This document shows positions 3,046 to 42,276 of a DNA stretch of 64,000 bases, in pieces. A program made the position numbers and the translations under genes. The notes below the pieces were generated by a model, which saw only the letters and a program-made list of their open reading frames with translations, was not told the origin of the DNA and ran no database searches. The DNA is from Candidatus Omnitrophota bacterium. Its GTDB lineage: Bacteria > Omnitrophota > Gorgyraeia > Zapsychrales > Zapsychraceae. Each line of letters starts with the position of its first letter. The stretch's first letter is position 1. The stretch spans positions 9,082 through 73,081 of the forward strand of contig JAJDCA010000051.1 of the NCBI GenBank assembly GCA_029261055.1, given 5' to 3'.

Positions 3046-3348
3046 ATGGATCCTCAAATACTCGTCTTTCTCTTCTTTATTTTAGCCCTTTCTATTTTTC
3101 TCGGTTTTGAACTTATTTCTAAAGTACCGGCAACGCTTCACACGCCCCTTATGTCCGGGGCTAACGCCATATCCGGCATTACACTTGTAGGAGCCATACT
3201 TTCTGCTGGTGGCAAAGGAAATAATATCAGCATTTTACTCGGAACTCTTGCCGTGGGTTTTGCCACAATTAATGTTATTGGAGGTTATTTGGTAACGGAC
3301 CGGATGTTAGCTATGTTTAAGAAAAAAGAAAGTGGAGATAAAAAGTGA
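3046..3348 (+). CDS. pntAB: NAD(P) transhydrogenase subunit alpha part 2 (membrane dII segment)
   Basis: 100-aa hydrophobic protein with three TM helices between pntAA and pntB. AAGGA ribosome-binding site upstream; its stop overlaps the pntB GTG start (GTGA). Confidence 0.8.
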   Translation: MDPQILVFLFFILALSIFLGFELISKVPATLHTPLMSGANAISGITLVGAILSAGGKGNNISILLGTLAVGFATINVIGGYLVTDRMLAMFKKKESGDKK

Positions 3349-4715
3349 ATTTAGAATTAATCATTAACCTTTCCTACATTGTTTCAGCCGCTTTATTTAT
3401 TTTCGGTTTAAAAATGCTCAGCTCCCCAGCTTCTGCGCGTAAAGGTAACATGCTTTCCGCCTTAGGCATGCTTTTAGCTGTTGTTGCGACACTTCTCACA
3501 CAGGGATTGGCCTTTAAATGGATCATCATCGGTGTGGCTGTGGGTGGTATTTTAGGTATTCTTTCGGCACGATTAATCGCCATGACCGCGATGCCTGAAA
3601 TGGTGGCGCTCTTAAACGGCTCCGGTGGTATTGCGAGTTTACTTGTCGGCTGGGCGGTGTACCATTTTCAACCAGCATCTTCGGTTCTCACAACTTTCAC
3701 TATTTTTCTTTCTGTCCTCATCGGCGGCGTCACATTTACCGGAAGTCTTATTGCCTGGGCTAAATTAAGTGAAAAATTACCTGGTAAGCCGATTATGTAT
3801 CCCGGCCAAAAGATTGTTAATGTTCTCATTTTAGTGGCCATTATTGCCGGCGGCATCATCTATTGCATGAATCCAGCCGCTAATTATTCCATATTTCTTG
3901 GCATTGTCGGATTATCCTTAATTTTAGGCATCCTTGTCGTCATTCCTATTGGGGGCGCAGATATGCCGGTGGTCATCTCTCTGTTAAATAGTTATTCCGG
4001 TTTAGCTGCATGTGCTGCAGGGTTTGTTATTCAAAATAATATCCTCATTGTCGCCGGTTCTCTTGTAGGCGCCAGTGGCATTATCCTAACTCAAATCATG
4101 TGTAAAGCCATGAACCGTTCTTTAGGCAATGTACTTTTCAGTGGATTTGGTTCTACCGTGCAAAAACAATCTGCAGATGTTGAAGGCGAAGTCAAACCGA
4201 TTGTTGTGGCAGATGCCTACTTCATATTAGAAGCTGCACGCTCTGTTACATTTGTCCCAGGTTACGGTATGGCCGTGGCCCAAGCCCAACACGCCGTACG
4301 CGAGTTAGGTGAAATCTTAGAAGCTAACGGCGCTGAAGTTACTTACGCTATTCATCCTGTGGCTGGACGTATGCCCGGACATATGAATGTTCTTCTGGCT
4401 GAAGCAAACGTTCCTTATGACCAATTGATTGAAATGGATGACATTAATCCTATCATTGAAACTGTAGATGTGGCCGTTGTGATCGGCGCCAACGATGTCG
4501 TCAACCCTGCTGCCCGTCATGATGAAGCCAGCCCTATTTACGGCATGCCCATCATCAATGTCGACAAAGCCAAAACCGTCTTTGTCCTCAAACGCTCCAT
4601 GAACACCGGCTTTGCTGGCGTTCAGAATGAACTCTTCTACTACGACAACACCCGCATGCTCTTCGGCGATGCCAAACAATCCATCCAAGGATTGGTCGCT
4701 GAATTCAAAAACTAA
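3345..4715 (+). CDS. pntB: NAD(P) transhydrogenase subunit beta
   Basis: N-terminal multi-TM region followed by a C-terminal NADP(H)-binding dIII domain (GYGMAVAQAQH...PVAGRMPGHMNVLLAEA). GTG start with a GGAGA ribosome-binding site. Confidence 0.85.
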   Translation: MNLELIINLSYIVSAALFIFGLKMLSSPASARKGNMLSALGMLLAVVATLLTQGLAFKWIIIGVAVGGILGILSARLIAMTAMPEMVALLNGSGGIASLLVGWAVYHFQPASSVLTTFTIFLSVLIGGVTFTGSLIAWAKLSEKLPGKPIMYPGQKIVNVLILVAIIAGGIIYCMNPAANYSIFLGIVGLSLILGILVVIPIGGADMPVVISLLNSYSGLAACAAGFVIQNNILIVAGSLVGASGIILTQIMCKAMNRSLGNVLFSGFGSTVQKQSADVEGEVKPIVVADAYFILEAARSVTFVPGYGMAVAQAQHAVRELGEILEANGAEVTYAIHPVAGRMPGHMNVLLAEANVPYDQLIEMDDINPIIETVDVAVVIGANDVVNPAARHDEASPIYGMPIINVDKAKTVFVLKRSMNTGFAGVQNELFYYDNTRMLFGDAKQSIQGLVAEFKN

Positions 4716-4768
4716 CCCATAAATAATACTACTTTCACTAAATAATTTACTCAGCCAGATAATTCTGT

Positions 4769-4818
4769 AAAAAATCCAGGCTCACAGGCTCCGCGGAGCC
4801 TGTGAGCCTGGATTTTTT
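4769..4818. terminator. Bidirectional intrinsic terminator between convergent pntB and the PilZ gene
   Basis: Perfect 16-bp stem CCAGGCTCACAGGCTC / GAGCCTGTGAGCCTGG with a CGCG loop, flanked by an A7 run on one side and a T6 run on the other. Confidence 0.65.
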
Positions 4819-4865
4819 ACAGAAAAACCCCTTGATAAAATTTTCTTATCAAAAGCTCACAAACT

Positions 4866-5246
4866 TCAATACTTTTTACGCGAAGATATTTTTTTGATGG
4901 TACGTTTGATACTACGCTTGACGGTAATGGGGCGGGATTTCTTTTCGATGAATTTAACAGCAACGACACAAGGAGAACCTGTTCGTTTACGGTCAATGCG
5001 GACAACTTGAGTGTATCCCTTAAATATTTCTAATATGCCGGACATCACCACGCGGATTTCTAACTTATCCTTAATTTTGAACTCAAGATCAGTATGAAAA
5101 GTCAAACCACTAACACTCATGTCTTGCGTAGTGGATAAATACCAGGCGACATCGGCCTTTCGCGTATCGCATAACCGATACTGCACACTTAATACACGCT
5201 TGGCTCTTGGAAATTCTCGTTGATCTTTACTAACTTTTTTAATCAT
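4866..5246 (-). CDS. PilZ-domain protein (c-di-GMP receptor)
   Basis: RxxxR (REFPRAKR) and D/NxSxxG (DMSVSGL) signature spacing of PilZ domains; small stand-alone protein. Confidence 0.55.
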   Translation of the reverse strand: MIKKVSKDQREFPRAKRVLSVQYRLCDTRKADVAWYLSTTQDMSVSGLTFHTDLEFKIKDKLEIRVVMSGILEIFKGYTQVVRIDRKRTGSPCVVAVKFIEKKSRPITVKRSIKRTIKKISSRKKY

Positions 5247-5261
5247 GATATTTCTTAAATT

Positions 5262-5357
5262 AAACCGCCTTCGGCGGCGATTTTTGCTTCAGTCATCAGC
5301 CATCAGTCACCAGTAAAAAAATACTGAAGGCTGATAGCTGACGTCTGATGACTAACA
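5262..5357. repeat. Intergenic hairpin repeat element, copy A (GC hairpin plus long imperfect CAGTCATCAG / CTGATGACTG hairpin)
   Basis: CCGCCTTCGGCGG stem-loop followed by a T-run, then a roughly 70-nt imperfect inverted repeat around an A7 loop. About 85% identical to copy B at 29768..29876; related hairpins occur at 17095..17147 and 39356..39384. Confidence 0.6.
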
Positions 5358-6458
5358 TTAAATTTCTTTCCAAGGAAGATCAAAAGTTTCCGCCACTTCT
5401 TTGATCATTAAATCTCCCTCAAACATATTAAGCGCTCGCCTTAATGGCTCAATATCTTTGATCGATTTCTCATACCCGTTATTAGCTAACAAAAGAATAT
5501 ACGGAAGCGTGGCATTCGTCAAGGCATAAGTACTGGTTCTCGCTACTGCTCCAGGCATATTCGTCACACAATAATGAACCACATCATCAATCACATACGT
5601 CGGTTCTTCATGAGTCGTGGGACGGCTGGTTTCAAGGGATCCCCCCTGATCAATCGCCACATCTACAATAACCGCACCGTGTTTCATTTGAGAAATAAGA
5701 TTACGATCAATCAAACACGGTGCCTTAGCCCCCCGGATAAGCACGCTACTGATGACTAAATCCGCTTTTAAAACAGCCTCACGAATCGTATGCGTATTAC
5801 TCATTAACGTATGAACATTCGGCGGCATAATTTCGTCCAAATAACGCAAACGATTTAAATTCACATCCATTACCGTAATATTAGCTCCAAGCCCGGCGGC
5901 CATTTTACAGGCATTAGACCCCACCACACCAGCGCCCAATATGACGACGTCTGCAGGTGTTACGCCTGGCACACCACCCAAAATAATACCTCGGCCTTTC
6001 ATAGGCTCTTCTAAATATTTTGCCCCCTCCTGGACGGCCATACGCCCAGCCACTTCACTCATTGGGATGAGACACGGCAACTCGCCATTATCCAATTGAA
6101 GCGTTTCGTAAGCAAAGGCAATGACCTTTTTTTCCAACATCGCCTCAGTCAATTCCCGACTGGCGGCAAAATGAAAATACGTAAAAATAATTTGACCCGG
6201 TTTTAAGAAATCATACTCTTGAGGCTGCGGCTCTTTAATCTTAATGATCATCTCAGCTTGCGCATAAATATCCGTAGCCGCATCTAAAAGCTCTGCCCCA
6301 GCGGATTCAAATTCTGTATCTGTGATTCCACTTCCCTGACCTGCGCTTTTTTCAATTAAAACACGATGCCCTGCCTCTTTCAGCATCTCAACACCCACAG
6401 GAAGAAGCCCTACACGGAACTCATTATTTTTAATTTCTTTGGGAATACCAATAATCAT
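5358..6458 (-). CDS. ald: Alanine dehydrogenase
   Basis: MIIGIPKEIKNNEFRVGLLPVGV... is near-collinear with B. subtilis Ald; Rossmann motif GAGVVGSNA. The start was moved to the MIIGIP ATG at 6458; the annotated N-terminal extension has no homology. Confidence 0.85.
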   Translation of the reverse strand: MIIGIPKEIKNNEFRVGLLPVGVEMLKEAGHRVLIEKSAGQGSGITDTEFESAGAELLDAATDIYAQAEMIIKIKEPQPQEYDFLKPGQIIFTYFHFAASRELTEAMLEKKVIAFAYETLQLDNGELPCLIPMSEVAGRMAVQEGAKYLEEPMKGRGIILGGVPGVTPADVVILGAGVVGSNACKMAAGLGANITVMDVNLNRLRYLDEIMPPNVHTLMSNTHTIREAVLKADLVISSVLIRGAKAPCLIDRNLISQMKHGAVIVDVAIDQGGSLETSRPTTHEEPTYVIDDVVHYCVTNMPGAVARTSTYALTNATLPYILLLANNGYEKSIKDIEPLRRALNMFEGDLMIKEVAETFDLPWKEI

Positions 6459-6465
6459 ATTTTTA

Positions 6466-6520
6466 TCGCTCGTCGCACGTAACACGTGACTCGCGTTTTG
6501 CGAGCGACGCGCCACAAGCG
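6466..6520. terminator. Stem-loop between fumC and ald, a putative terminator or processing site
   Basis: TCGCTCGTCGC...GCGAGCGACG inverted repeat with an internal CACGTAACACGTG palindrome, in the 78-nt gap between two co-directional genes. Confidence 0.3.
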
Positions 6521-9382: not shown

Positions 9383-10966
9383 TTATTCCCTTTTTTTAAC
9401 CTTAATCATTAATCCTTGCACACTCACAACTTCAACTTCTTCACCTTTTTTAATATCCTGATCACTGCACGCCGTCCATAACTCACCATGCACATACACC
9501 TTCCCTTTTTGAGAAGGACTAATCATTTTTTGTACTTCTCCAATTTCACCAACTAAACCTTCTTTGCCACCTAATATGCGCGAACGATGCGAACGAATCA
9601 CTGACCGCACCAAAAACAAAGTAAGCCCCGCCGTTGTCAATGAAAAAGCAAAAATAGAAGATTTTGAAACTCGCATAATCGGATCTACCGTGTCAAAAAG
9701 AAGCATAGAACCTAAAATCAGACACACCAATCCCCCTAATGTTAACATACCAAACGTCGGGGTGTACGCCTCGGCAATGAGTAAAATAAGTCCTAATATG
9801 ATTAAAGCTAAACCGGCGTAATTCGTTGGCAAGGTCTGCATACTGTAAAAGGCTAAAATTAAAAATATGGCGCCCAAAATACCAGGCACACCGATACCAG
9901 GATGTGTGACTTCAAATAACAATCCATAAAATCCAAGAATCATCAAAAAGTACGCAATATTGGGGTTGGCCAAAATATTAAAAAATTTCTGGCTGAAATC
10001 CATGGCGATGTGTTCAACATAAGATTTTTTTGTTTCTAAAGTAATATCTTGCCCATTAATATTAATCACTCGCCCATCAAGCTTTTCCAATAAATCATTT
10101 TCATTCTTCGCAATAATTTCGATGACACCCTTCTCTAAAGCCTCATCATTAGTAATGGAATCGCTTTTGACCACACTTTGTACCGCCCACTCAACATTAC
10201 GCCCTCGCTCTTTCGCAATACTCTTAATAAAGGCTACAGTGTCATTTAAAATTTTGCTTTCCATCGGCGACGCATCAGGTTCAATCTCTTCGACCCCCTG
10301 AACATCCCCCTCTTCCTTCTCTGCCTCTTGATTCTCTACTTCTTGCCTCTCCACTTCTTGACTCTCTGCTTCTTGATTCTCAGTCTCTTCCCCCTCAACT
10401 CGCCCTTTTCTCAATTCATCAATCAACTCCTTCAACTCATCCCAGCGTTCAAGCTTTCGCCGCGGTGCTTGCCCAGGCCCCATCTGTACAGGATGTGCGG
10501 CTCCGATATTAGTCGACGGCGCCATGGCCGCGAGATGACTAGCATAAGTAATAAACACTCCAGCTGAACCGGCCCGCGATCCGCCTGGGGCAATGTACAC
10601 CACAATCGGCACTTTCGACGTGAGCATCTTTTTAACAATCAGTCGCGTTGAATTCAAAAGTCCGCCAGGTGTATCTAATTTAATAATTAAACATTGAGCA
10701 TTTTCTTCGACAGCCCGATCGATTGATCCCACAATGTAATCCGCTGTTACCGGATTAATCGTATCGTCGTTGAGTTGGATAATGTGGACTTTATTGGAAG
10801 GTGAAGCTTTTACTGGATTGAGATTAGCTGAGAACATCCATAAAAAAAAACCTAAAACAAAAATAAATATAAAAAACAAAGGGGTAACCCTTGCGGTTGC
10901 CCGGTTAAAACTTTGTTTGAGGACAGACCCAAGGCCAGCCCCCACAGTATTTCTTTTCTGATCCAT
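9383..10966 (-). CDS. NfeD-family membrane-bound ClpP-class serine protease (stomatin operon partner protein)
   Basis: ClpP-like N-domain (DTPGGLLNS...GSRAGSAGVFI), multi-TM middle region and a C-terminal OB-fold. Contains an inserted acidic E/Q-rich low-complexity segment encoded by a CTTCTTG microsatellite. Confidence 0.8.
   Translation of the reverse strand: MDQKRNTVGAGLGSVLKQSFNRATARVTPLFFIFIFVLGFFLWMFSANLNPVKASPSNKVHIIQLNDDTINPVTADYIVGSIDRAVEENAQCLIIKLDTPGGLLNSTRLIVKKMLTSKVPIVVYIAPGGSRAGSAGVFITYASHLAAMAPSTNIGAAHPVQMGPGQAPRRKLERWDELKELIDELRKGRVEGEETENQEAESQEVERQEVENQEAEKEEGDVQGVEEIEPDASPMESKILNDTVAFIKSIAKERGRNVEWAVQSVVKSDSITNDEALEKGVIEIIAKNENDLLEKLDGRVININGQDITLETKKSYVEHIAMDFSQKFFNILANPNIAYFLMILGFYGLLFEVTHPGIGVPGILGAIFLILAFYSMQTLPTNYAGLALIILGLILLIAEAYTPTFGMLTLGGLVCLILGSMLLFDTVDPIMRVSKSSIFAFSLTTAGLTLFLVRSVIRSHRSRILGGKEGLVGEIGEVQKMISPSQKGKVYVHGELWTACSDQDIKKGEEVEVVSVQGLMIKVKKRE
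10300..10400. repeat. CTTCTTGAYTCTC-type microsatellite (coding, within nfeD)
   Basis: Roughly 12-13-bp imperfect tandem units. They encode the E/Q-rich acidic insert ETENQEAESQEVERQEVENQEAEKEE on the coding strand. Confidence 0.6.
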
Positions 10967-15392: not shown

Positions 15393-17036
<1,644 letters not shown>

Positions 17037-17094
17037 TTAAAAAAGGCAAGGATCATTTAAGCCTAGCTAACGCTCGGCAATTAAAATGATCAGG

Positions 17095-17147
17095 TTTCAG
17101 TGATCAGCAATCTGTTTTTTTAACCACAGATCACTGACCACTGACCA
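17095..17147. repeat. Hairpin repeat (CAGTGATCAG ... CTGATCACTG type) in the thiC leader / groEL trailer
   Basis: TCAGTGATCAGCAATCTGT / ACAGATCACTGACCACTGA imperfect inverted repeat around a T7 loop. Same motif family as the 5262 and 29768 elements. Confidence 0.5.
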
Positions 17148-17160
17148 ATTACAACGATAC

Positions 17161-18858
<1,698 letters not shown>

Positions 18859-19264: not shown

Positions 19265-22200
19265 TTAAATACGACTTAATTCTTTGGCTACATCTTCTTC
19301 TGAAACGCCAAGTAGCAAAGGTAGATTATGTACCGGTGTCATCTGAATAATCACCGGTGTCAGGCCGTTAATATTGAAGTTGAGGTTCTCTAATTCACTC
19401 TCACTGCAGTCTGGATTTTCATCAGAAAAACAAGGGACGAGGATATTAGGAAAATCAAAATCAATCTTATCGCCATTTGTTTGAAGATCAAAATTGCCAG
19501 GATTAAAATCAATCCCACCAAGATTGTTATCCTGACCTAACAAACTTTTATCGTGTAACACTTCCTCGACCATCTGCTTTATCTCTTCCATTAACAGACC
19601 TTTTACTTCCTCATCATTAATACCTCCCTGCATTACTTTAAGCTCATATTTTTCTATTAAGTTTTCAGAGAACACCTTTAATAAAAATTTATTTACAATA
19701 TCCACCAGAATTTCTTTATTTGAAAACTTTTTTAGATTAAATACAACAATAGACTTTTTAATCAAAATTTGAAAAATTCCAAATATTCTTTTAAAATTCT
19801 CGACACTAGCTTCATTTTCACCCATATCATCTAAAACACGTTTCATAAAACGAGATCTTTCTTTTTCAAATAAAGACGTAGAAAAAAAATTTTTATCTCC
19901 AATTTTTTGATTTACAATATTTTCCAAGAAATCATAACGTTTACCCATTCTATCTTTCAATAAAGTAAGATCACCTGTCTCATACAAAGCCATCATGAAA
20001 TCTTCACCATATTTATTAATAATCTTTTTTACAACTCGCAACTCATTTCCGTAATGTAATAACGGAGAAATTATTTTGTTTTCTATCTCCTCCTCAGATA
20101 ATTCTCTATCGTACTTCGGACTCAAGAATTCAAATGCTTCCGGATTTTTTCTAAATACCTCCTTCAGTGTTTTTTCCTGTAAATACGTAGCGAATCCTTC
20201 TCCTAAATAATTCCCCAACAAACCTGTTAAACTCAAATAATCCTTACTATGCCATTGTTCATGTATTACTGCAGCAAGAAAATCTAACGGAGTCTCTATT
20301 GATGAAATCAAACTTATTCCTTGTCTTTCTTTCCCTCCTATTATCTCAATAAATTCCCCGATAGAATCGGAATCATGAAATTCAAAAATATCATCCAGCA
20401 ATGACCCCGGCTTAATCATGAATACTAAATTTTCATCAAAATCAGGCATATTTTCTTTTACTATTTTAAATATTTTCTTTTGCTGAGAAGATAATTTTAT
20501 CTTGTTGTATTTTCTAAGAACTTTTACTCGAGATTGAAAACTATTTGCAAAGCTAAATTCTTTCCTTAAAAGCATTGCCTTTTTCACTTTTTTAAAATTT
20601 CCATGTATAATCCTTACTTTCTCCTTTTGATTATTAATTTCATCTCTTGATGTATCTAGTTCTATTAAAATATTCAAAACATTCTTTTCCTTTTGTAATT
20701 TTTCCGGACTCCATTCTTTTATATATCGATCCATATTTCTTATTATTTCTTCTCCAGAAAAATCTTCAAAATCACTATCATTACCTACGCCGATCATCAT
20801 AGCTCTATCCAAACCACTCTCGACAGAATACCCCTTATGCCCTCGCTTTTTGGATTTAAAAGAAACACCCTGAACATCATTCCGAAACCTTTTCGCTAAT
20901 AAAATAGCGGCGAGAAGTTTCATAAAATTACCAAATTCCCCTCTGGACTGATGCCCGATGGTGGAATCATTTGAAAAATTTAGTATCAAGTTTTCCCTGT
21001 TTGAACTTCTTTTGAGTACTTGCATAAAATGAGCTAATTCATGCACCAAAGTATTCGTCAGCGGATGTAAATCACGGCTCTGCGGATTAACAGTCTCAAA
21101 GGATGAAACACTGTCTGTTCTAAAATATATCGTTACCTTTCCTCTCTTCAGCTCAAATCTTCCTGATACAGGAAAATCTTCATTCAATAACTTCACATTC
21201 GTAAATCCAATCAACCCAACGGTATTTTTGACCCATTCAAAGAAGCTAACTTGTTGTTCATTAAAATATTCAGGAGAAATAACATAATCCTCTGCATCAT
21301 ATTTCGCGGCTTCCACAGATTTTTCCGCCTTTTCTTTCCGTTCTTTAAAATAAGGATCGGAAATATAATCTAATTCATTCTCATCAATACCATGCTCTGC
21401 CGCCACCCGAAGTGCTTCCTTTGGATTAACGCTCATTTGTGTCTTAATACGTCTTTTCAACAAACTGTCTCTTTTTCCATTTTCTGTATCAACATCCAAC
21501 TGCACCATAAACAGAATAAAAGATTCCTGCCATTGCTCTTTCTGCTGTCTAACCCCAATTTTCCCATCAAAGGCCTTCCCAATTTTTTTCAAATCAGATA
21601 ACGCTATCACATCAATCTGCCCTTTATTAATGTTCTTAACCACATCAAACAAATGCGTATTTCTTTCTTGATTGATCTTTAAATGAGGACTCTCTTTCTG
21701 TGTTAATCCTTTCCAATACGATGGATTCCTTCCTGTTTCCCACTCCGAATCAAAACGCTTCAGCCGGAATATTTCATCCGTGAGCGCCTTATGCGCCAAT
21801 GCCTTATAAAATTCCACCGCCACATACTTTTGAATCTTCGAAAGATAATCCTTTTCATGCCGAAACGTATCCCGCGTTTCCATAAGCGGCAGAGGAATTT
21901 GAATGATCAACCCTAATTCATCAAAATAACCCCTTAAGAATTCCGGAATAAATTCCAGAAACTCCTCTTTAACCTTGATATCAGAAACCCTTATTCCATC
22001 GCGATCAATAATCTGACTTTTCACATCCGGATCATTAGTCATGTAAATACGAAATTTTCCAAAATTAGTTGTTGCGCCAGTATCCAAAGATTTTGTGATA
22101 AAATCTGTTTCCGCCAAAACCTTTTTCCCCCTCACCTCAAGCGGAACCAACGTTCTTTTTCCATCCTTGTACCGGACAAACGAAATGGTAAATCCCTCTC

Positions 22201-25200
22201 TCTGCGCCATCCCGGCAAACAGCTTCCACGATGATTCAGACAACATTTGATCCAAAGCAGCAATACCATTGCCTTTCTTTTTAATCCGCCGTATCATGAC
22301 CCCATTTTTTAAACCTTGCCGCGCTAACTTACGGACACGTACCAACCTGATCTGCTGCCCGGATGGGTCGACATCAATCGTAAACATATACGCTTCCCCG
22401 TCATTTTTGGCAATAATCTCCAACCGATCTATCCCGGCATACAAAGCAAATTTCCCTTTGCCAAAATAACCGGAGACATCTCCCATCTGCCCCCCTTTTT
22501 CCTTATTCGACTTGGGGATGAGCATGGCTAATATCTTACCGATGGGAGGCCCTTTGCCGTCATCGGTTATTTCTTCAACAAAATCTCCTGTCTCTTCATC
22601 TTCATAATGTTCAACAACAAGATTTACGGCCTTGGCATCGGAGGAATTTTGCGCGGCTTCCGCCGCATGCCGCCCTGCTTCCTGTGCCTTCATAAGATCA
22701 GCAATACTTTGACTAGATTTTTCATTGTCCGGCTGAGCCATAATTTGTTCAATCGCGGCCATCATTTCTTCAATCGTATAAAGATCACTCTCCTCTTCCG
22801 CACTCCTCTTTTTATCTTGGTTCCAGGCTGCAATCTTTTCTACAGGCACACCGCCTTTTGTCATCACAATATCTTCTTCAGCCACGGGGTCTATTTTTCT
22901 CCTAGTATGAACCAAAGGCACATCACTTGTAAAAAACACAATAAACTTTTTGGCCTCTCCTAAATTTAAATCCTGATCCGCGCCTGGATACTTAAATTCC
23001 CTTAAAATATCTATATACTCCACCGATTCAAACGAAGAGGCCCATTGGTCCAAATAATTTTGCCGTACATCTTTGTTTTCATGATTCAAAATTTGTTTCA
23101 GCTGCCGGGTCATGACATCCAGCCCATTTTTGTCTTGAGAAATTCTTGATAAAAATCGAACCATTTTCCGAATAGTGACCACGTCCGTGCTATCTTTCAT
23201 CTCTTTTACCAGTTTATAAATTAAAGGCATAGCCTCAAGATGTTCATCTATTTCAATATTCCACCCAAACAAAAGCGCCTCCATAAATTTAATATCAATA
23301 TTGTTCGCTTGAATATCAACATCCTGATTCGACGCTAAAGAAAACAATTTTTCATAAAATGCTACCCATATCTCATTTAGATCCAGAAGCGAAGACACAC
23401 CATTGACCAGCTTCATAATCTTTTCTTGATCCTTCTTAAGTGCCTTAATAATAAATTCCATCCTTTCAGCAAAAGTATCCAAAGGAAGCCGCTGAAAAAG
23501 ACGATTCCAGTCAGGCGAACCTTCTTGAAAGAGCAAATCAAAGGCCTTGTCATATTTTTCTGTTACAGCTTCGTCCTGCTTCCTGAATAAAGCTCTTATT
23601 TCGCCATTCAAATCATTTCTAAGATCTTCCGGCACAAGATCCAAAAATGGTTTATACGCCTCTTCGGCCTGCTGCACCCACTGCTCCTGTCGACTCAACA
23701 CTTCTTTTTCCCATAAATCCTTAGCTTGATTCATAATGTCCTGTTGTTCCGAAGTGCCCTTACTCAACGGACTTTCCATAAATGCTTTAGGATCAAATAT
23801 CTTTACTTGACCCTCCTCACTGTTGTAAAACACAAAAACAGAACCGGATACGCCGACCAATTCATAATTCAAATAACCCTCCATAACAATTTCAACATGA
23901 TTCCCTTGATCATTAACAATCCTGTAATTACCTTGTGCGTATTGCTCCAAAATAAACGTGCGGTCTTCTGTTATAAAAATAACCCCCTCTCTTCCAGCCA
24001 TTATTGCATCCCCTGTTTTATAAAAGTAATCAACAATTTCTCCTCCTGGTAAAACAGCATACACTACTTTATTATCCCTGGATGATTCCAGACGCATACC
24101 TGTTTTGTGGGTTAATGGAACGTCAAAATTTGAAGCAGATATTATTTCTAAATTTTTATCATAAACCAAAAGCTGATCTTCCAAACGGATAAGCTGAGTA
24201 TCCGACTGGTTTGGCAAATTTTCATAGGATTGAAATTGATCCGGATCAACCGCCTCCATCCCATTCTCCGTGATCCTGGAAATGCCGACAGAATCTTTGC
24301 CATACGTTGTCCAGTATTTGGGTAAATTATATTTCTTTATAATTTCATTTAATTCATGTAGGTTATCAAAGCTTTCAAGCCAACCATTTGAATTATCATG
24401 CTTCTCACCTTTTAGAACAACTCCGAAATAACCATGATTTTCTCCTTTAAATGTTAAAGAAAAAGTTTCCTTTTCATTTGAAGTCATATGAATTTGTTTT
24501 GAATTCGCTACGGAACCATACGGGCTTTGAAAAACAAGCCCTTCGGACTTACTAAGATAAATAAAAATTTCCCCATCCTGATCACTAAAAAAATAGTCTA
24601 TGTTATCAATGCGTCTTTTCTTTTCCAACCTGTACAAATGTTTCCCGGATACATCCTCATACACCACCACATCCGCCTTTGGGTCGATGTAAAAAGACCT
24701 TACATCAGCTGCAATCTGAATTTTAAGGATTTGAATATCTTGATACAAAGGGTCTAAAACAAAAAGATCATTCCTTGAATTCAAAATAATAACGTACCGT
24801 CCTGAGGGGGACAGATTAGCCATCTTTAAATCGTTCAGTATAAAATTATCAGAAGTGTTAAAATAATTTTCCTTCAAGGGTAAAATCATGTACGCACCAG
24901 TTGATTTAGACTTCAAAAGAACCTGCCGCTGATTATACTCAATCAAGAAAAAGCCTTCTGCTGAATTATCCCATGTTCGGGATAGTAACTTCCCTTTACT
25001 ATACGTAGATGCGGCCAATAAAAATTTCCGTGTTATATCCGAGCCGGCCTCCTGCACTTTAAAAATTAAAAACATATTTTCATCCACTTGAAGAATCTCC
25101 GCCCCTTTTTTGATATCTGCAATCCCCTTTCCATTTTCATTTATTAATTGTTGCGTATCCCCATTATTCTTAATAAATATATATCCCTTTTCTAGATTTT

Positions 25201-28200
25201 TCTCTGCAAGAAATTTTTCTGAAGAAATTTTTATCTCAGGGGTTTCGGCCTGACTGGGCATGATGGACAAAAATTCCCTAAATTTCACCTCTTCATTTGC
25301 CCCCTCCGCATTTGTCTTTTTAACAGATGTGTGGGATGGTTGAAATTTAACCGTCTTCTTTTGATTCACAATCTCATACGAGGTATCGATTGTTTCATCG
25401 GCTTTAAGTTTAATCAACTCTGCAAAGAACAAAAAATCAACCTGTTCTTCCTGAGTTAATTCTTCTGTCTGTTGTTTTTCCGCTAAGGCAAAAAACGGTT
25501 CGGCAAACTGCAAAGGAATCGCAATAAAACTATCGGCATCGATGATCGGTAAAGATATCGGATTGTAAAAATCATAAGTGGCTAATGAAAAACTCGTTAA
25601 CGTACCGATCGCTTCTTCGGTAAAGGGCACAGCCACTAAAGGAATATCTTTGTCCTCGCCATTACGCTTACGGGTAAACTTAAAGGTTTGTTTATCCATA
25701 ATACGCGCCCCCATTTTTTTAAGGCTAAACTCCCCGTTCCAGTCAAATAACATAGGGTCTAAATAAACAGCTTTTTGCGCAATTTGGGCATACATCTTTT
25801 GATGCGGCAGAAAAACATACGCCCCCTTTGACTTTATGCCAGCGACCGTTCCGGCGATTTGTTGACGGATGGCCAGTTTAATATCTCGAACAACGGCCTG
25901 ACTCTTCTTATTATCTCCGGCCAGATTATCCAGCCCGGCCGCAATGGTGTTCACATATTTTAACTTTTCTATATCGCTTAACCCCAACTGCTCATTGTTT
26001 AAAATCCCTTCCACCATATGCTCAACGGCCACCTGCATGGGCCACCGGCCGTCATTAGAATAACGTCGTTTTGGAAAATGAATATTGCTCCGGGACGGGG
26101 CAATATCCACAAATCCGTTAAACTCAAGCATCAAAGTCTCCTGGACAAGAGCCTCGGGATTAATATCATCATTATTCATATCTTTCTCAAGGGGGATCGT
26201 TCGCAATACCTCTTCATTTCGCACAAAGGCAACCTTCGCTTTGTTTTCACGGGCATCAGAAATAACCATAACATGTTTAAGAGCCGCTTTAATATCAGAT
26301 TCCTTGACAACTTTAGCTGTTTTATCTCCTTCTCCAGGCACAAACATACGTGATAACTTCACACCATTCATTCCTTTCCCATTATCAATAATTTTAATGG
26401 TGTTCTTTGAGACCAATAATTTAATATCCTTACCTTTTCTGTCCTCTTCCGTAGGGAGAGGTTCCCCTTCAGGAACAAGAATTGTGCGATATTCCCATCC
26501 ATTAACCCGTTTTTCTTCACCCCCTTTTTGTGTGACAATACGCTGCTTCTTGTTATAAGCAAATCTTTCGCGTGCATTATCAATTAATTCACTTTGTGTA
26601 ATTTTGCTTTCTTCATATTCATCCATCTCTTCCGGGATATTACGGCCGGTTTGAATTTCAACAATGGTGCCGTGTTCTAATTCTTGCCCCTCAGCCGCCT
26701 CCCAAAATTGCTCGTGGGTTATTACTTTAATTTGAATGTACACCTGGCCGACGGAGTCTTTGAGCATAGTCAACTGATAAGCCGTATCACCCCCCTCGGC
26801 CAAGGTATACACATCAATACGTCCTTTTATTCCCGTCTCAAGCCAATCCGCGATTTGTTTAATTCCGCGCCCGAATTTTCCAATATCCCCACCCCAAGCA
26901 TCTATACTATTGGCGATAGCTTCCATAATGCCCTGCCCTTTTGGATCCCCGCTCTGAGAATCAACCTCATCCGTAAGGTTTGGTTTGGTATAATGCCCAT
27001 TCAGAATCCAGCCGATACTCTCTTCGGTATATCCATCTTTTACTAATTGCTGCACAATGGCATCATAATAAAATTCTTTTAAGCTCAAGTTAAAATCTTT
27101 TTCTTCTTTTAAAATACCCAAATTACTCAGCAACGATTTTAATTCCAATTCATCCAGCTGATCATCAGCCAGACGCCTTTGAGCCGCGGCAAAATGCTCC
27201 CAATCTATCCCTTTAAAATTTTCTTCCGGTAAGGCATATTCTGTTGCCTGAATTCGATTTTTTATTTTATCCAGTTTTTCCTGATCACCCTGACGGGTAA
27301 TCATGGCGGCATCGGAAAACTTTTCCGGTGGTAAGACTGATACTTTGGCGGATTCATAATCCTTTTGCCCGGTATTTTTAACTTGAGCTTGTATGTTAAC
27401 AAACATAGCCCCATCATCATAAATTCCCTGGATAACATGGAATGGCATCTTCTGTGCCACCAGTAAAATATCTTCCACTTCCTCTCCCATATCCATCCCG
27501 CCAGAAAAATACTTCCGTGGAACAATTGTTTCTGTAACAAAATCATAATCTTCTTTGATGTAGTCATAAACACCTACTTTAAAGGCCTCGAGGTATTGAT
27601 CATAAATTTTCTGTTTGGCCTGTTTGTCTTCAATGTCCACGCCGTCAACTTTGTTCTGGCCGATGTATATTGAGGACAAGGCATGCCTTGTCCCTACAGA
27701 ATTTTTCAATTTTCGTTTGAACCATGTGGCGAGGATCAAGGAATGATAAATCTGGCGGAGCTGGGCGAAATTGGCGCCCTCGTTGACTTCGCGTTCAATT
27801 TCGGGAATGAGGATTTCGCGGATGATGGATGTCGTAGGGGCAACCCTTGTGGTTGCCCTTTCTTTTTTGGCGGGTACAAAGCCCGCCCCTACGTTATGCC
27901 CCATCGCAACATAATCCGCCTCCAACATCACCTTCAACCGCGACTCCACCACAAACGCTGTATTGGTTTCCACATTCTCATACACCACAGCCTCAGACGG
28001 CACAATCCACACCTTGTTAAAGGTATCCACCGGAACATCCATGACGCCATATTCTTCATACGCCCGCTCATGCACCCGATCCCAAAACTCTGCCCCCAAC
28101 TCATCCCCCGGATACATCAATGAGGCAGTAATTTGTTTGAGCAAATAATCTTGGGCCAAAAGATCTCGGCCCATTTCCGTTACTCCAAACTTCTCAGGAA

Positions 28201-29743: not shown

Positions 29744-29767
29744 TTATATAAATCCTTTAATATTAAA

Positions 29768-29876
29768 TTAGGCCACCTTCGGTGGCGATTTTGGCTTTTA
29801 GTCATCAGTCGTCAGACATCAGTAAAAATACTGAAATCTGATAGCTGACGTCTGATAGCTAACATTGAATTTCCTT
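29768..29876. repeat. Intergenic hairpin repeat element, copy B
   Basis: CCACCTTCGGTGG stem-loop followed by TAGTCATCAGTCGTCAGACATCAGTAAAAATACTGAAATCTGATAGCTGACGTCTGATAGCTAACATT. About 85% identical to copy A at 5262..5357 and in the same relative position (downstream of one minus-strand gene, upstream of the next). Confidence 0.6.
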
Positions 29877-29880
29877 AACA

Positions 29881-30777
29881 TTAAATTTCAAACTTGTCTA
29901 GAATAGTTGATCGATCTTGCGGTTTGGCATTCTTAAGTTGCGCCTGGAGAATTTCATCATAACGTGGTTTATCAGGATTACGATAAAACAGACCGAAATA
30001 AAATCGATCGCTGTGTGCATACTTAAAGGCCTGGTCTCTATCACTAGGATCGTGAACAATAACTTCAGATTTGTCCTTCAAGCGTTTATCGGCAGGAACA
30101 CCTTTTTCATGTGTTAAAAATGAAAACCACTCAGCAGATTTTGTATCAAAATTACCCGGATAAAAATGCGGGCAACGTTGCGTCACATGAACAAATGAAA
30201 ATCCTTTATGCGCATAGGCCGCTTTTAATGTTTGAGTCAAATGGTCGGGCATCCAATCTGCGGTGCTGGCTGCAAACGAAGCCCCTATTCCTAAAGCAAA
30301 TGCCATGGGAATAATGGGATCAAGATACGTCCCTGTAGGCTGTGTATTCGTTTTATGCCCTTTTTTTGTTGTCGGGGATGTTTGGTTCTTCGTCAAGGCA
30401 TAAAGTTCATTGTCATACATCACAAATACACAATTAAAATTTTTATTAATGCCGTGTAATAAATGATTACCGCCAATACTCAAAGCATCGCCGTCACCGG
30501 AATGAATAAAAAGATTGAGTTCCGGCCTGGCTAAAGCCACTCCTAAAGCAACAGGAATCGCCCGCCCATGAATAGCATGCACTCCATACGTATTAAAATA
30601 AAATGACGCGCGCCCAGAACATCCTATGCCTGAAATATTAACCGTCTCATGTGGCGGCAACTGCTCGTCTACCAAAAAACGTTTTACTCCAGCAATAATA
30701 CCAAAATCACCACACCCTGGACACCAACGCGGATTTTCGGTTTGTAAATCTTTCATTGTTATGGGTTGATCTGACAT
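29881..30777 (-). CDS. korB: 2-oxoacid:ferredoxin oxidoreductase beta subunit (TPP-binding)
   Basis: N-terminal CPGCGDFG motif and TPP-binding GDG...N block typical of OFOR beta subunits. Confidence 0.8.
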   Translation of the reverse strand: MSDQPITMKDLQTENPRWCPGCGDFGIIAGVKRFLVDEQLPPHETVNISGIGCSGRASFYFNTYGVHAIHGRAIPVALGVALARPELNLFIHSGDGDALSIGGNHLLHGINKNFNCVFVMYDNELYALTKNQTSPTTKKGHKTNTQPTGTYLDPIIPMAFALGIGASFAASTADWMPDHLTQTLKAAYAHKGFSFVHVTQRCPHFYPGNFDTKSAEWFSFLTHEKGVPADKRLKDKSEVIVHDPSDRDQAFKYAHSDRFYFGLFYRNPDKPRYDEILQAQLKNAKPQDRSTILDKFEI

Positions 30778-36634: not shown

Positions 36635-36720
36635 CAGTATCCTTTTTTAAGAAAAGTAGAGATGCAAGGTATAAGATGCAGAGAAAAAGCATCCCTCGCT
36701 GCTTCTTACCTCTTTGCCTC

Positions 36721-39355
36721 TTACTTCTGTACCTCTTGCTTCCTTACCTCTTGCTTCTCTACAACAGGCCTTGTGACAACTATGGCAGATTTATTGAGAT
36801 CTAAGTATTCATTTGCCAAACGCTTAATATCTTCTTTAGTTACCCTGTCGATTAAGGTATCATATTCTTGATGATGATTAAACCCTAAACCATACAATTC
36901 ATTCAAACTGCTTGTAAAATTTAAAGCAGAATTTGTCTGGTGGGATGTCTTAAATATTCCCTTAAGATACGCCTTAATATCCTTCAGTTCTTCGTCTGAA
37001 ACATATTCGCGTTGAATTCTCTCAATCTCATTTTTTAAAGCCTTCTTTGCATCAGGAACTTTTTCCGCTGTGGTCAAAACATAAAAATAAATCAAACCAG
37101 CATCAATACCAGGAGCAGAATATCCTCCCAAGGTGTAAGCTTGCCCCAACTCTTCCCGAATACGCGTAAATAACCGACCACTGAATGATGATCCTAAAAT
37201 AGATGTTAAAACCTCAAGGCCATAACGATCTTTATGTTGCATGGTTATGCCATGAAAACCCATAGCCAACATAGCCTGCTGTTTTTTCATGGTTAATGAT
37301 TTTTCTCGCGATTTTTCAATAGGCGTTTCCTTATGTATCGCCAGTTGGACTTCATTCTTCTTAAGATCGCCTAAGGCCTTCTTCACCTTAGACAAAATAT
37401 CTTCAGATGTAATATTTCCAAAAATCGATAAAACCATATTATTCGGAACAACCAATTTTTCATAAAAGGCCATAATATTTTCCCGTGTAATACGATCGAT
37501 AGATTCTTCTGTCCCCTCTTCTTCGAGACGAAAAGGATGCTTTTCAAAAGTTAATTCTTTTAACGCATGGCCGGTAAACTGTGCAATGTTATCGTCTCTT
37601 TGCTTAATATCCGCCTTCAAGTCCCGCTTTCGCTTAACAATTTCAGCCTCGGGAAAATTGGGATTAATAATAATATCTTTTACCAATCGCAAGGCTTCAT
37701 CCATATCTTCCGATAAAAAATCCAAACTTAGACCAAAACTATTTTTCCCTGAATAACTACCAAGCTGCATACCTAATGACTCAGCCTTATTGGCAATCTG
37801 ATCGGCAGATAATGCCTTAGTCCCTTTTAACCACACCATAGATGTCAATTTAGAAATGCCATTCAGCATGACATTTTCCTGACGTGTTCCACCATTAACG
37901 ACAATACGCAAAGCCGTGGAAGGAAATGTTGCATCCTTACGTAAAAGTAATGTTAATCCATTTTTAAGAACATGTTTCTGAATTTTGTCCTCTTGAAAAT
38001 GCTGCGCCTCTTCATCTTTATGAAGAACGTCCTTTTGTCCTTTGGGTTTTAAAACAACAACCGTCGATGATTGCTTACGGAGATATTTATGGGCTACCCG
38101 CTTGATAGCATCCATTTCGACATCGGCAATGGCATCGACATATTTTTGCGAAAATTGATAATCTCCGGTAAAAGCCTCATCAACGGCCTGGGCATAAGCT
38201 ACTTGCGATGTTGTTTGATGCCCTAAAATGTGTTCACTCAAAACCTGCTTTTTAGCTTTTTCCAACTCAACTTTTTTGACACCTGCCGTCTTTATATTTT
38301 CGATTTGCTTCCATGTGATATCCATGATGGCATCCAAATATTCCGGTTCCAAAAGCCCTACAATTTCAAATAAACCTTTATCAATAGGCGTATAATTTCC
38401 TGCTGAAATAGAACGAAACGCTACCCCTTCCCTATCTAAAGCCCGATAAAGTCGCGACGTTTTCCCTTGCCCCAAAATTTTGGCTAAAACATCTAAAGCA
38501 AATAAGTCCTCATTAAGAAGACTCATGCTATTGAAAGACAATGTAAAGCGCGTCAAATTTGTGGCAAATTCCTCCTCATAATAACGCGGACTGATTTGTT
38601 GCGGTTCTTCCGGAAGATTGCGCGGAATATCTGTCTGCCGTCGGAATGATTCAAAAGCATCTTTGATCTTGGGCAGCACCTCTTGTGTATTCACATTTCC
38701 AGCTATCGATACGATCGTATTATTCGGGATATAAAAATCGCGATAATATTGCATGATATCATCACGTGTTAAATCGATGAATAGCGGTTTGTATCCAATG
38801 ATAGGATGACGATAAGGATGGCGAATGTAAACATTTTGAAATGTAAGCTGACTTAAATGCCGTGAGGGTCGGTCTTCATGCAATCGCATCTCCCCAAAAA
38901 CAACATCCCGCTCTTTTTCGATTTCTTCGGCATCCATCGTAGCAAACTGCATCATATCCGCTTGAATAGCTAAGGCCATGTCAAAGGCATCGGAAGGAAC
39001 CGTGATCGTATAAATCGTGTAGTCCATACTTGTCGCCGCATTTATGCTACCACCGACGGCTTGAACTTGGGCGGCAATTTCTCCTAACTTTCTATTTTCT
39101 GTCCCCTTAAAAAGCAGATGTTCCAGAAAATGAGAAACACCACTTCCCAAAAGATCCCCCTCGGTAGCTGAACCCGTTTTAACAAGGGCATAGACCGATA
39201 CCGACGGATTAGACGGCATTTCGCTGATTAAAACCGTTAATCCATTATCTAAAATATATTTTGATGATTTTCCCTGGAAAGCTTGGGATGAAGAAATTTG
39301 CAAAAAAATTAGAACCGCAGCAATAAACGAAATTATGATTTTTTTAGACATAGCT
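36721..39355 (-). CDS. Secreted tandem M16-family zinc peptidase (pitrilysin/insulinase-like, two M16+M16_C units)
   Basis: HFLEHLLFKGT inverted-zincin HxxEH motif and duplicated halves. The start was moved to the MSKKIIISFIAAVLIFLQISSSQA signal-peptide ATG; the annotated start is an upstream GTG. The C-terminus ends in an EKQEV repeat encoded by a microsatellite. Confidence 0.8.
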
Positions 39356-39384
39356 GAACACTGACGACTGATCACTGATCCCTA

Positions 39385-39927
39385 TTAATTATTATTTCCT
39401 TCTTGCTTCTTAAACTCTTCCAACAACCTTTTAATATCCTGGTCTGCATTGCGCGCGACCTGAGTGCAAATAAAAATCAAAAGAGAAAACTGCCAACAAT
39501 CTTCAGGCCCCTTGATAAGACCTGTCTGCACATTTTCTTCTTTTTGTAAAATATTTTCGTAATGCTTAATAGCGCCTGAGAGCTTACCTTCATGAATATC
39601 CAAAGACATTGTTTTATTATCATAGCGCAATGATGGCATACGTACACCACGAACAAGGAGAAAATTAATCAAAGAATTTTCATCAATTCTTTCCTCTTCA
39701 CCAAATTCAAAACCTTGAAACTGTGGATGATTGGGCGGAACAATAATGGAAGGTTTCTCGACAACAACCTCTCCTTTACGTACAATCGTATCTCCCACAT
39801 TAATAGTCGATTCTGATAATAAAATATACGGTACGTGCGTATCGCCCAACGTCAAAAGAGCCTGAATACGCGACCGGATAATTTCCGTACTTTTTAAAGC
39901 TTTATACCAAGATTTCTCAAAACTCAT
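39385..39927 (-). CDS. Hypothetical protein (180 aa)
   Basis: ORF with gene-like codon periodicity and spacing; no recognizable motifs. Confidence 0.4.
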   Translation of the reverse strand: MSFEKSWYKALKSTEIIRSRIQALLTLGDTHVPYILLSESTINVGDTIVRKGEVVVEKPSIIVPPNHPQFQGFEFGEEERIDENSLINFLLVRGVRMPSLRYDNKTMSLDIHEGKLSGAIKHYENILQKEENVQTGLIKGPEDCWQFSLLIFICTQVARNADQDIKRLLEEFKKQEGNNN

Positions 39928-40016: not shown

Positions 40017-40109
40017 CTGGCGGAGGAGGAGAGATTCGAACTCTCGAGCCATCTTACGACAGCCACACGCTTTCCAAGCGTGCGCCTTCAACCACTCGGC
40101 CACCCCTCC
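40017..40109 (-). tRNA. tRNA-Ser (anticodon GGA), class II, CCA encoded
   Basis: Reverse complement is GGAGGGGTGGCCGAGTGGTTGAAGGCGCACGCTTGGAAAGCGTGTGG...GAGAGTTCGAATCTCTCCTCCTCCGCCA. Anticodon stem CACGC/GCGTG, loop TTGGAAA. Confidence 0.85.
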
Positions 40110-40228
40110 AAAATTTGTCCATCAATGAAAAGGCAGTATACTAGGGACTTTACGAAATATCAAGAATTTTGAATGTATTAAGAAATAATATTAAAGGACA
40201 TCCTTAACTCGTGTGCTTGGGTATAATT

Positions 40229-41242: not shown

Positions 41243-41326
41243 CTAAATATTTTCTTTTTGAACTGTTAGGAACCTATCAAAAAACCTTCCTGATCCGTGT
41301 AAGTTGCTTTGGCAATAGCCGACTTT

Positions 41327-41977: not shown

Positions 41978-42130
41978 ATTTTAAAGGACTACAAAAGTAC
42001 TACACTCGATTAATTTTTCTTATTTTTGAGCAGATACTTATTGACTATTTTTACGTTGTAAATATATGACATTGAAAAGGTTATGTCATAAGTTGGTGGG
42101 ATTTAAAATGTTGTAAAAGCTGCCAAGCAT

Positions 42131-42171
42131 TCTTTCCAAGCGTGCGTCTTCAACCACTCGGGCACCCCTCC
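42131..42171 (-). pseudogene. Truncated tRNA-Ser(GGA) copy: 5' half through the anticodon loop only
   Basis: GGAGGGGTGCCCGAGTGGTTGAAGACGCACGCTTGGAAAG is identical to the 40017..40109 tRNA over about 40 nt with 2 mismatches, then diverges. The upstream-flank motif ATATCAAGAATTTT is shared too. Confidence 0.7.
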
Positions 42172-42276
42172 CAAACTTTTTTCAAATTCATTAATCAGAA
42201 ATTGAACGAGCGATAAGCATACTAAAGCCTACCCAAAATATCAAGAATTTTAGACATGTTATCAGTTAATATTTTT

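Follow-up and report, generated by a model that had tools for sequence, protein, structure and literature searches.

The 64,000-nucleotide stretch analysed here (the window), from contig JAJDCA010000051.1 of a Candidatus Omnitrophota bacterium, carries four intergenic sites built from tandem 7-nt units with a CTGA/TCAG core. One lies downstream of ald (copy A), one downstream of a 2-oxoacid:ferredoxin oxidoreductase beta gene (copy B), one downstream of groEL, and one directly before the probable start codon of an M16 peptidase gene. Together, they reflect an expansion, local to this Omnitrophota genome, of heptanucleotide repeat arrays with a CTGA core, and copies A and B are two old copies of a single intergenic module of about 110-125 nt. 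A first-pass annotation of the same DNA had placed all four sites at or near their present positions and had described a structured intergenic repeat family on the transcribed strand between co-directional genes, a description that our analysis supports. The features are as follows.

5255..5366, minus strand: copy A, a composite module running from GAAATTTAA to AATTTAA, delimited by alignment with copy B, open reading frames (ORFs) and Pfam domains
5286..5355, minus strand: long hairpin of copy A, from minimum free energy (MFE) folding and the heptamer unit table
5264..5278, minus strand: GC stem-loop of copy A, GCCGCC GAA GGCGGU, with CAAAAAU before it and UUAAUUUAAG after it
17090..17147, minus strand: third heptamer hairpin, next to groEL, with 21 contiguous pairs in the MFE fold
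29762..29889, minus strand: copy B, a composite module delimited by alignment with copy A, ORFs and Pfam domains
29798..29862, minus strand: long hairpin of copy B, from MFE folding and the consensus structure with copy A
29772..29786, minus strand: GC stem-loop of copy B, GCCACC GAA GGUGGC
39352..39378, minus strand: direct array, TCAGTGA TCAGTCG TCAGTGT TCAGCT, from pattern matching and the unit table

The repeating unit at these sites is the heptamer TCAGNNN, and not the 10-mer half-site proposed at first. Tandem Repeats Finder returned a period of 7 at 4/4 sites, and when all tetramers were compared at periods 5-11, CTGA/TCAG at period 7 was the sole enriched combination in the window. The pattern TCAG-N3-TCAG-N3-TCAG matches the window nine times against 0.00 expected from 100 shuffles, with all nine matches inside the four sites, and 834 kb of unrelated DNA contains no match. 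The hairpin arms are inverted heptamer arrays, (TCAGNNN)n and (NNNCTGA)n. Across the 29 units in seven arms and arrays, the TCAG core is kept at 110 of 116 positions (95%), and the few deviations (6/116; TTAG, CCAG and TCTG) are confined to the array ends. In sharp contrast, the three spacer positions match their consensus at 44 of 87 positions (~50%) and mismatch it at 43 (core versus spacer, Fisher p = 1e-13). How complementary the spacers of opposing arms appear depends strongly on the register chosen for the comparison. At least three tandem 7-nt units with a CTGA/TCAG core are present, as in the CTGA-core heptanucleotide arrays of the Geobacter class 3 type discussed below. A TCAG array stands 5' of a CTGA array, paired on opposite strands, at 3/4 sites, and the remaining site (1/4) is a direct-only array. 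The exact unit TAACTGA/TCAGTTA occurs zero times among the window units, and all four sites are intergenic.

Copies A and B share 85% mean column identity over about 120 alignment columns, in agreement with the first estimate, and the anatomy originally outlined, with a GC stem-loop, a linker and a long imperfect hairpin, was found in both: each carries CCGCCGAAGGCGG or CCACCGAAGGTGG, the linker, and then the long hairpin with a T/A-rich loop. The homologous module is longer than had been noted for copy A (5262-5357), reaching about 5255-5366 and 29762-29889, and it extends from the two final codons plus the stop, which read GAAATTTAA in either gene, through AATTTAA. In copy A, GAAATTTAA constitutes the final two ald codons and the stop (5358-5360), and the other end lies 8 nt short of the ATG (5246) of a PilZ-domain gene. 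Read along the minus strand, on which nearly every gene of the window lies, copy A consists of GAA ATT TAA (the end of ald; Pfam AlaDh_PNT, alanine dehydrogenase), TGTTAG, the 5' arm TCATCAGACGTCAGCTATCAGCCTTCAGTAT, a U7 loop, the 3' arm ACTGGTGACTGATGGCTGATGACTGAAG, the linker CAAAAAT, the GC stem-loop CGCCGCCGAAGGCGGT and the tail TTAATTTAAG. The component order is the same in copy B, which is flanked by the stop codon of the oxidoreductase beta gene (29881-29883) and the ATG of a thioredoxin-reductase-like gene (29743), and whose left end occurs twice in tandem (GAAATTTAATGTTAAG / GAAATTCAATGTTAG). The 5' arm of the long hairpin reads TTAGTCA TCAGACG TCAGCTA TCAGCCT TCAGTAT in copy A, where it is followed by a U-rich loop, and TTAGCTA TCAGACG TCAGCTA TCAGATT TCAGTAT in copy B. 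The 3' arms are inverted arrays that read, on the plus strand, TCAGTCA TCAGCCA TCAGTCA CCAGTAA (A) and TTAGTCA TCAGTCG TCAGACA TCAGTAA (B).

An 'EI-stop' encoded by the module is common to the ald and KorB gene ends. The idea that the element truncates the C-terminus of Ald or KorB was rejected, as alignments to structures in PDB put both protein ends within the normal range. A small plus-strand ORF of copy A was dismissed after reading copy B, where it is not conserved, and a likeness to C/D boxes (CUGAUGA...CUGA), whose sole support was weak snoRNA matches with E > 3, was set aside as a by-product of the repeat unit. At the other end of ald, the listed GTG start of the ORF (5358-6515) is probably 19 codons too far upstream; alanine dehydrogenases in PDB align from MIIGIPKEI, with an ATG near 6458.

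The third hairpin had been taken, at 17095..17147, for a thiC leader. It starts 13 nt past the groEL stop codon (17161) and ends 74 nt ahead of the thiC start, and the element at 17090-17147 is thus a groEL 3' element and not a thiC leader. Its arms are TCAGTGG TCAGTGA TCTGTGG and, inverted, TCAGGTT TCAGTGA TCAGCAA TCTGTTT. The hairpin is followed by UUUUAAUU and then by a promoter-like TTGCCT-16-TATAAT ahead of thiC, an arrangement that fits the end of an operon. For thiC itself (15393-17015), the strong promoter-like site (17049-17022) stops just 6 nt short of the annotated ATG; the mRNA may be leaderless or the annotated start mis-set, and no thiamine pyrophosphate (TPP) riboswitch match reaches the Rfam gathering score.

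The fourth site, first reported as a relative at 39356..39384 before the M16 peptidase gene, proved to be a real array at 39352-39378, albeit a direct one only. It has no inverted partner arm, and the fold of 39340-39395 is not significant (z = -1.9). The array fills the gap from TAA-TAGGGA, comprising the upstream stop and a Shine-Dalgarno-like AGGGA, to the probable M16 peptidase ATG (39349-39351). In the window, the three hairpins sit at gene 3' ends, and this array adjoins a start codon.

All three hairpins start 0-25 nt past the upstream stop codon, on the coding strand and between co-directional genes, and all three fold strongly, with RNA fold z-scores of -7.1 for copy A, -6.2 for copy B and -5.8 for the groEL site (17070-17165). 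The sense RNA is clearly more stable at two of them: the MFE of the long hairpin of copy A is -33.3 kcal/mol in sense (z = -6.2) versus -28.6 in antisense, and that of the groEL hairpin -30.0 versus -19.9 kcal/mol. Copy B is the exception, with -24.2 kcal/mol in sense (z -5.2) and -25.8 in antisense (z -6.0). The long stem is laid out as 6-bp segments with a single mismatch every seventh nucleotide. In the sense consensus of A and B, 22 of 22 long-stem pairs are kept and none is broken in either copy; among the paired columns, 4/4 single substitutions interconvert G-U with A-U or G-C, and the GC stem-loop shows one double compensatory change from G-C in A to A-U in B. As evidence for selection on pairing, this pattern from two sequences is modest. 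A comparable consensus, in another register, is obtained from the antisense strand, the repeated units permitting several registers. In copy A, the GC stem-loop, together with the A-tract and U-tract on its sides, satisfies a simple terminator definition on both strands. Rfam 15 annotated only tRNAs in the window, the best E-value for copy A (0.16) being far below the gathering score.

The window also holds another, unrelated heptamer family, in the form of purine-rich (AAGAGGN)n arrays followed by a pyrimidine-rich inverted copy. One such hairpin (49800-49990, minus strand) leads from a tRNA_edit-domain gene to a LolA-like gene (-42.1 kcal/mol, z = -3.7), and another (36640-36770, minus strand) from the M16 peptidase gene's 3' end to a T2SSE ATPase gene (z = -2.1). 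The linker of an NfeD gene (10309-10408) contains an in-frame version of the same type, 15 nt long. With hairpins of this kind at two more co-directional junctions, array-built hairpins seem to be a general 3'-end filler of this genome.

The best GroEL matches, at 85-88% identity, all belong to metagenome-assembled genomes (MAGs) of Candidatus Omnitrophota/Omnitrophica. No period-7 TCAG array of at least three units was found in five of these Omnitrophota relatives over ~105 kb around groESL, nor in a further 730 kb of unrelated metagenome DNA. The expansion looks local to this lineage within Omnitrophota. Among public contigs, only two carry exact window proteins, both of them short Logan contigs from run SRR15505515 that are window-identical where compared. 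A metagenome scan with the GC-head pattern returned 111 loci, all of them unrelated coding sequence or generic hairpins and none with heptamer arrays, which argues that the GC head is not a family marker, and a BLAST search of copy A against plasmids and phages gave no match.

The heptamer class as such extends much further. We scanned one genome per GTDB species for four TCAG units at period 7, which gave at least 120 loci, the scan order being unknown. Among the matches listed, at least 45 loci have arrays of five or more units, at least 23 are matched by an inverted array no more than 150 nt away, and the TCAG array lies 5' of the CTGA array in 22 of 24 inverted-pair arrangements; by record titles, which are indicative, they include about 33 loci from Acidobacteriota, 23 from the Planctomycetes-Verrucomicrobia-Chlamydiae (PVC) group, 12 from Chloroflexota, 12 from Bacteroidota and 8 from Cyanobacteria. 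The same inverted pattern occurs in IMG/VR viral contigs with an orientation ratio of 21:1. In genomes (among the matches listed) and viral contigs together, 43 of 46 pairs outside the window show the TCAG...CTGA order, a preference of ~20:1; this order reads alike on both strands and is distinct from CTGA...TCAG. The lineage specificity claimed by the first-pass annotation hence stands for the expansion and the A/B module, with five relatives free of arrays, and does not stand for the heptamer class, which is found in many phyla and in viral contigs.

Some of these loci resemble copy A closely. Locus L086 reads ...TCAGCTATCAGCTTTCAGCCGTCAGTAAAAACAAAAATCTGATAACTGATGGCTGACGGCTGA..., L085 consists of a stop codon, a hairpin and then the rpmI start, and in L065 (Geothrix alkalitolerans) the arms enclose a GC hairpin and T-run. 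Beyond this genome, many TCAG...CTGA hairpins begin 0-25 nt past a stop codon, arm-to-arm spacing ranges from 1 to 140 nt, and all examined hairpins (57/57) lie outside long ORFs. At 18 loci from other phyla, no Rfam family overlaps the heptamer hairpins.

We had considered TCAG a globally unique core, a view that was dropped after a GACT control scan gave AGTC...GACT inverted heptamer arrays. Such pairs, for example (AGTCAAG)n...(CTTGACT)n, occur at viral loci L378, L383, L391, L394 and others with an orientation of 7 versus 1, indicating that heptamer-array hairpins are a broader phenomenon. In another Omnitrophota MAG (CAWDSS010000010.1; L100:1173-1197), the start of an ORF, which encodes a signal peptide (MKITSLVMVLAVSCQLSAVSC...), contains (TCAGCTG)4-5, and slippage by 7 nt there would shift the frame and could act as a phase-variation switch.

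Heptamer arrays with a CTGA core have been described before. Aklujkar et al. (2009; PMC2700814) listed, for Geobacter metallireducens, 'class 3 predicted global regulator binding sites' in eight pairs, with each site made of about five tandem heptanucleotides with the consensus MTYCTGA, the members of a pair lying on opposite strands 70-110 bp apart (for example at proB-proA), and they suggested binding by IHF/HU. The supplementary alignment (PMC2700814, Additional file 9) shows the TCAG...CTGA arrangement with units CTGAATT and CTGACTC. The window sites resemble these multicopy class 3 sites in their tandem CTGA-core heptamers, in the opposite-strand TCAG...CTGA pairing and in their intergenic, including intercistronic, location. 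They differ in arm spacing, which is 8-17 nt in the window hairpins, in their heterogeneous spacers, where the Geobacter units are nearly uniform, in the GC terminator hairpin fused to the module, which the class 3 sites lack, and in host phylum. The inverted arrays of Nostoc sp. ChiQUE01b (L077:925-1038) are composed of CTGAATT and CTGACTC, as in G. metallireducens, and the identity of these units suggests, from sequence comparison, that there may have been either transfer or a shared recognition constraint.

In marine Beggiatoaceae, some Cyanobacteria and Bacteroidetes, MacGregor (2015; PMC4679880) described direct repeats of TAACTGA that mostly lie a short way ahead of start codons, and proposed a translational role via S1, Csp or CsrA-like proteins. 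Our TCAG period-7 pattern recovers a (TCAGTTA)n locus in Parabeggiatoa (L031). The CTGA-core heptamer, the intergenic location and the patchy phylogenetic distribution are common to the two groups, and the array at 39352-39378 adjoins its start codon without normal Shine-Dalgarno spacing, as TAACTGA repeats often do. However, the TAACTGA sets are nearly all direct (one indirect repeat among 170 sets) and consist of one exact unit, whereas in the window hairpins at gene 3' ends make up three of the four sites, and the sense orientation before the M16 ATG is TCAG, not CTGA. Other heptamer repeats, close to promoters and start codons, are reported in a Nostoc preprint to have regulatory effects, with no binding factor named.

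Two further comparisons concern position and repeat type. Repetitive extragenic palindromes and bacterial interspersed mosaic elements (REP/BIME) of enterobacteria and pseudomonads are extragenic imperfect palindromes that lie at gene 3' ends or between cistrons and are cotranscribed with the upstream gene; they stabilise the upstream mRNA and attenuate read-through. The REP/BIME likeness seen earlier is a reasonable functional analogy for a 3'-end hairpin, but the window sites do not belong to the family defined by REP and REP-associated tyrosine transposases (RAYTs): their arms begin with TTAG or TCAG, lack a GTAG or GTGG (GT[AG]G) head and are heptamer arrays. Nor did the search for a cognate RAYT succeed, with no RAYT or Y1 transposase detected by Pfam in the 39 larger ORFs of the window, a set that leaves out the 3105-aa ORF at 19265-28582 and several smaller ones. 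The STRR heptamer repeats of cyanobacteria, which Mazel is said to have described in 1990, reportedly have the units CCCCAGT, TTGGTCA and CAACAGT. The window arrays share with STRR and long simple-sequence repeats the tandem 7-nt design, the intergenic location, a lineage-specific expansion and the presence of several families per genome; they differ in that the STRR units are unlike those of the window, and that STRR repeats are described as homogeneous direct arrays, while the window has core-plus-variable-spacer hairpins. According to the summary of Mrazek (2007) given in PMC4679880, heptanucleotides are the commonest class of long simple-sequence repeats in prokaryotes.

On balance, we tentatively read the window copies as a transcribed 3'-end or intercistronic hairpin-plus-terminator module that acts at the RNA level. 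This reading draws on the position after stop codons, the strong folds, the pairing kept between A and B, the sense-strand advantage at two of the three hairpins, and the promoter-like site after the groEL hairpin. It draws too on the A- and U-tracts of the GC stem-loop, on the AAGAGGN hairpins at two other co-directional junctions of the window, and on the stop-proximal hairpins of other genomes. The module would be transcribed as the tail of the upstream mRNA, and the long hairpin would form right after the stop codon, its 6-bp segments each consisting of a TCAG:CTGA core plus two spacer pairs with a mismatch at every seventh nucleotide. The long hairpin, the GC stem-loop and the U-rich tail could then define and protect the 3' end through termination and stabilisation, and the module would attenuate read-through into the next co-directional gene, in a role like that of REP/BIME or of a clustered-hairpin terminator. 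Replication slippage or template switching of the 7-nt unit is the probable source of the arrays and of their changes in length, and the A/B module may have been copied by recombination or other mobilisation, and not by a transposase visible in the window.

Several observations weigh against such a role. The terminator definition is satisfied in copy B on the plus (antisense) strand only, where the T-run is better, and the minus-strand tail (CUAAUUUA; sense tail CUAAUUUAAU) fails the U-tract requirement. The putative terminators end just 17-28 nt before the next start, leaving no space for a separate promoter. Terminators should favour convergent over divergent junctions, and yet, of 47 hairpins classified by a crude ORF call, 8 are at divergent junctions and only 4 at convergent ones, the opposite trend. 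The class-wide tests of strand and stop proximity, which also depend on crude ORF calls, go in the expected direction without reaching significance: sense exceeds antisense stability in 19 cases versus 11 (p = 0.14), and the median upstream gap is 22 versus 58 nt downstream (p = 0.19). Moreover, pairing alone leaves unexplained both the 95% conservation of the core against ~50% of the spacers and the ~20:1 preference for TCAG...CTGA over CTGA...TCAG, and the M16 direct array, which has neither inverted partner nor fold, is not covered by a hairpin model.

The main rival is a binding-site explanation, which would accommodate the core-and-spacer pattern, the variable arm spacing and the orientation bias. 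Here, the arrays would be heptad sites, one protomer of a sequence-specific protein binding each 7-nt TCAG/CTGA unit on duplex DNA or on single-stranded RNA or DNA, so that they would serve as operators, nucleoid sites or translational control sites, with the hairpin potential a by-product of inverted site pairs; we regard this as rather unlikely. Iterons would be expected to show just such a strongly conserved 4-nt core between freely varying 3-nt spacers, and a 7-nt register has precedents in the omega repressor of pSM19035, whose affinity for WATCACW heptads depends on their orientation, and in HutP, which binds NAG-N4 repeats on RNA. The coexistence of a direct-only set beside a start codon (39352-39378) with inverted pairs, whose arm spacing elsewhere varies from 1 to 140 nt, the orientation bias (22 versus 2 in genomes among the matches listed, 21 versus 1 in viral contigs) and the intergenic placement whatever the orientation of the neighbouring genes also point this way, and binding was proposed earlier for both the G. 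metallireducens class 3 sites (a global regulator or IHF/HU; PMC2700814) and TAACTGA (S1, Csp or CsrA; PMC4679880). However, neither HutP nor anything plainly tied to the arrays turned up among the window ORFs scanned with Pfam; two of the three spacer positions also pair in A and B, with substitutions that keep pairing, which independent sites would not need; and AGTC/GACT cores also form inverted arrays, so one TCAG-specific factor cannot explain the general phenomenon. A bolder version, in which TCAG/CTGA arrays would be the cis-sites of a hitherto unrecognised cross-phylum nucleic-acid-binding system, one protomer to each 7-nt unit by analogy with the omega repressor or HutP, and with inverted and direct arrays encoding different outputs at gene ends and starts, would explain the conserved core, the free spacers, the ~20:1 bias and the presence in Acidobacteriota, PVC phyla, Cyanobacteria, Geobacter, Beggiatoaceae and viral contigs, but strikes us as unlikely.

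If the arrays were neutral DNA without function, long heptanucleotide microsatellites that polymerase slippage creates and that are tolerated between genes only, then the prevalence of heptanucleotides among long prokaryotic repeats (as PMC4679880 summarises Mrazek 2007), the coexistence of two unrelated families in the window and the absence of arrays from the same locus in relatives would be readily understood. Yet neutral decay should hit all seven positions equally, in contrast to the 6/116 core and 43/87 spacer mismatches; heterogeneous units slip poorly; the pairing is preserved between A and B; and the strict TCAG...CTGA orientation requires a cause, which together make neutrality a doubtful explanation that we consider distinctly unlikely. 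We likewise judge it improbable that the module is a non-autonomous mobile element, of the miniature inverted-repeat transposable element (MITE) or REPIN type, with the arms as terminal inverted repeats for a transposase encoded elsewhere, A and B as two insertions, and any function incidental. Two 85% identical copies do lie 24.5 kb apart between unrelated gene pairs, both bounded by AATTTAAT and AATTTAA and copy B with an extra 16-nt left-end duplication, and the class is patchy, cross-phylum and viral, with identical CTGAATT/CTGACTC units in Nostoc and Geobacter. Against this, no transposase or RAYT was found among the scanned ORFs of the 64-kb window; the flanking 8-mers (AATTTAA(T)) are the same in both copies, which makes them part of the element and not target-site duplications, and no copy-specific duplication is present; only two copies are known, the composite being absent from the metagenome contigs, plasmids and phages searched; and the groEL and M16 arrays share the heptamer type only, not the module. 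Finally, A and B could be paralogous small RNAs, derived from 3' untranslated regions (UTRs) or independently transcribed, with the conserved single-stranded linker AAGCNAAAAUCGCC as seed. A stable hairpin plus terminator is the usual 3' architecture of small RNAs, and the unpaired linker is conserved between A and B to the same degree as the stems; but no promoter-like site was seen upstream of either copy on the minus strand, Rfam gave no match, and the case is built on two sequences, the groEL and M16 arrays having neither linker nor head, so this appears very unlikely.

Cyanobacteria, Beggiatoaceae and Geobacter have been known for decades to carry heptanucleotide arrays, none with an established function. 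The window adds an Omnitrophota example of CTGA-core arrays and reveals their anatomy: a conserved 4-nt core and free 3-nt spacers, arms that pair into periodic hairpins and, just past stop codons, the joining of these to a terminator-like hairpin. The scans, in turn, show that the inverted TCAG...CTGA architecture recurs, with its orientation bias, across distant phyla and viral contigs, and that it is uncurated in Rfam. Should these be RNA 3'-end modules, operon annotation and expression modelling would be affected in many uncultured lineages; should they be protein-binding heptads, they would point to an undiscovered regulator. The cross-phylum recurrence and the orientation bias merit systematic study, as the window alone cannot settle function, and the cultivable carriers Geothrix and G. 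metallireducens make function experimentally approachable.

Other repeats in the window were noted along the way. A perfect 62-nt palindrome (4763-4824; 31-nt arms, no loop, A6 and T6 flanks) separates the convergent pntB (3345-4715, plus strand) and PilZ-domain (4866-5246, minus strand) genes and resembles a bidirectional terminator. The 3' half of tRNA-Ser(gga) (40018-40109) is partly copied at 42132-42178 (47 nt, 91% identical), and a second direct repeat occurs at 40135-40192 / 42216-42273; both repeats bracket a RhuM-family gene and a hypothetical gene, and 40018-42273 looks like a small island integrated at the tRNA. A 1630-aa subtilase-family ORF contains at least seven tandem 126-nt (42-aa) repeats (44498-45320) and also three 300-nt repeats (42266-43957). 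Lastly, 27716-28288 and 53928-54491, in the 5' parts of the 3105-aa ORF (19265-28582) and of a 1139-aa ORF with a ThiG-like domain (51381-54800), are 70-83% identical, which suggests a shared N-terminal module.

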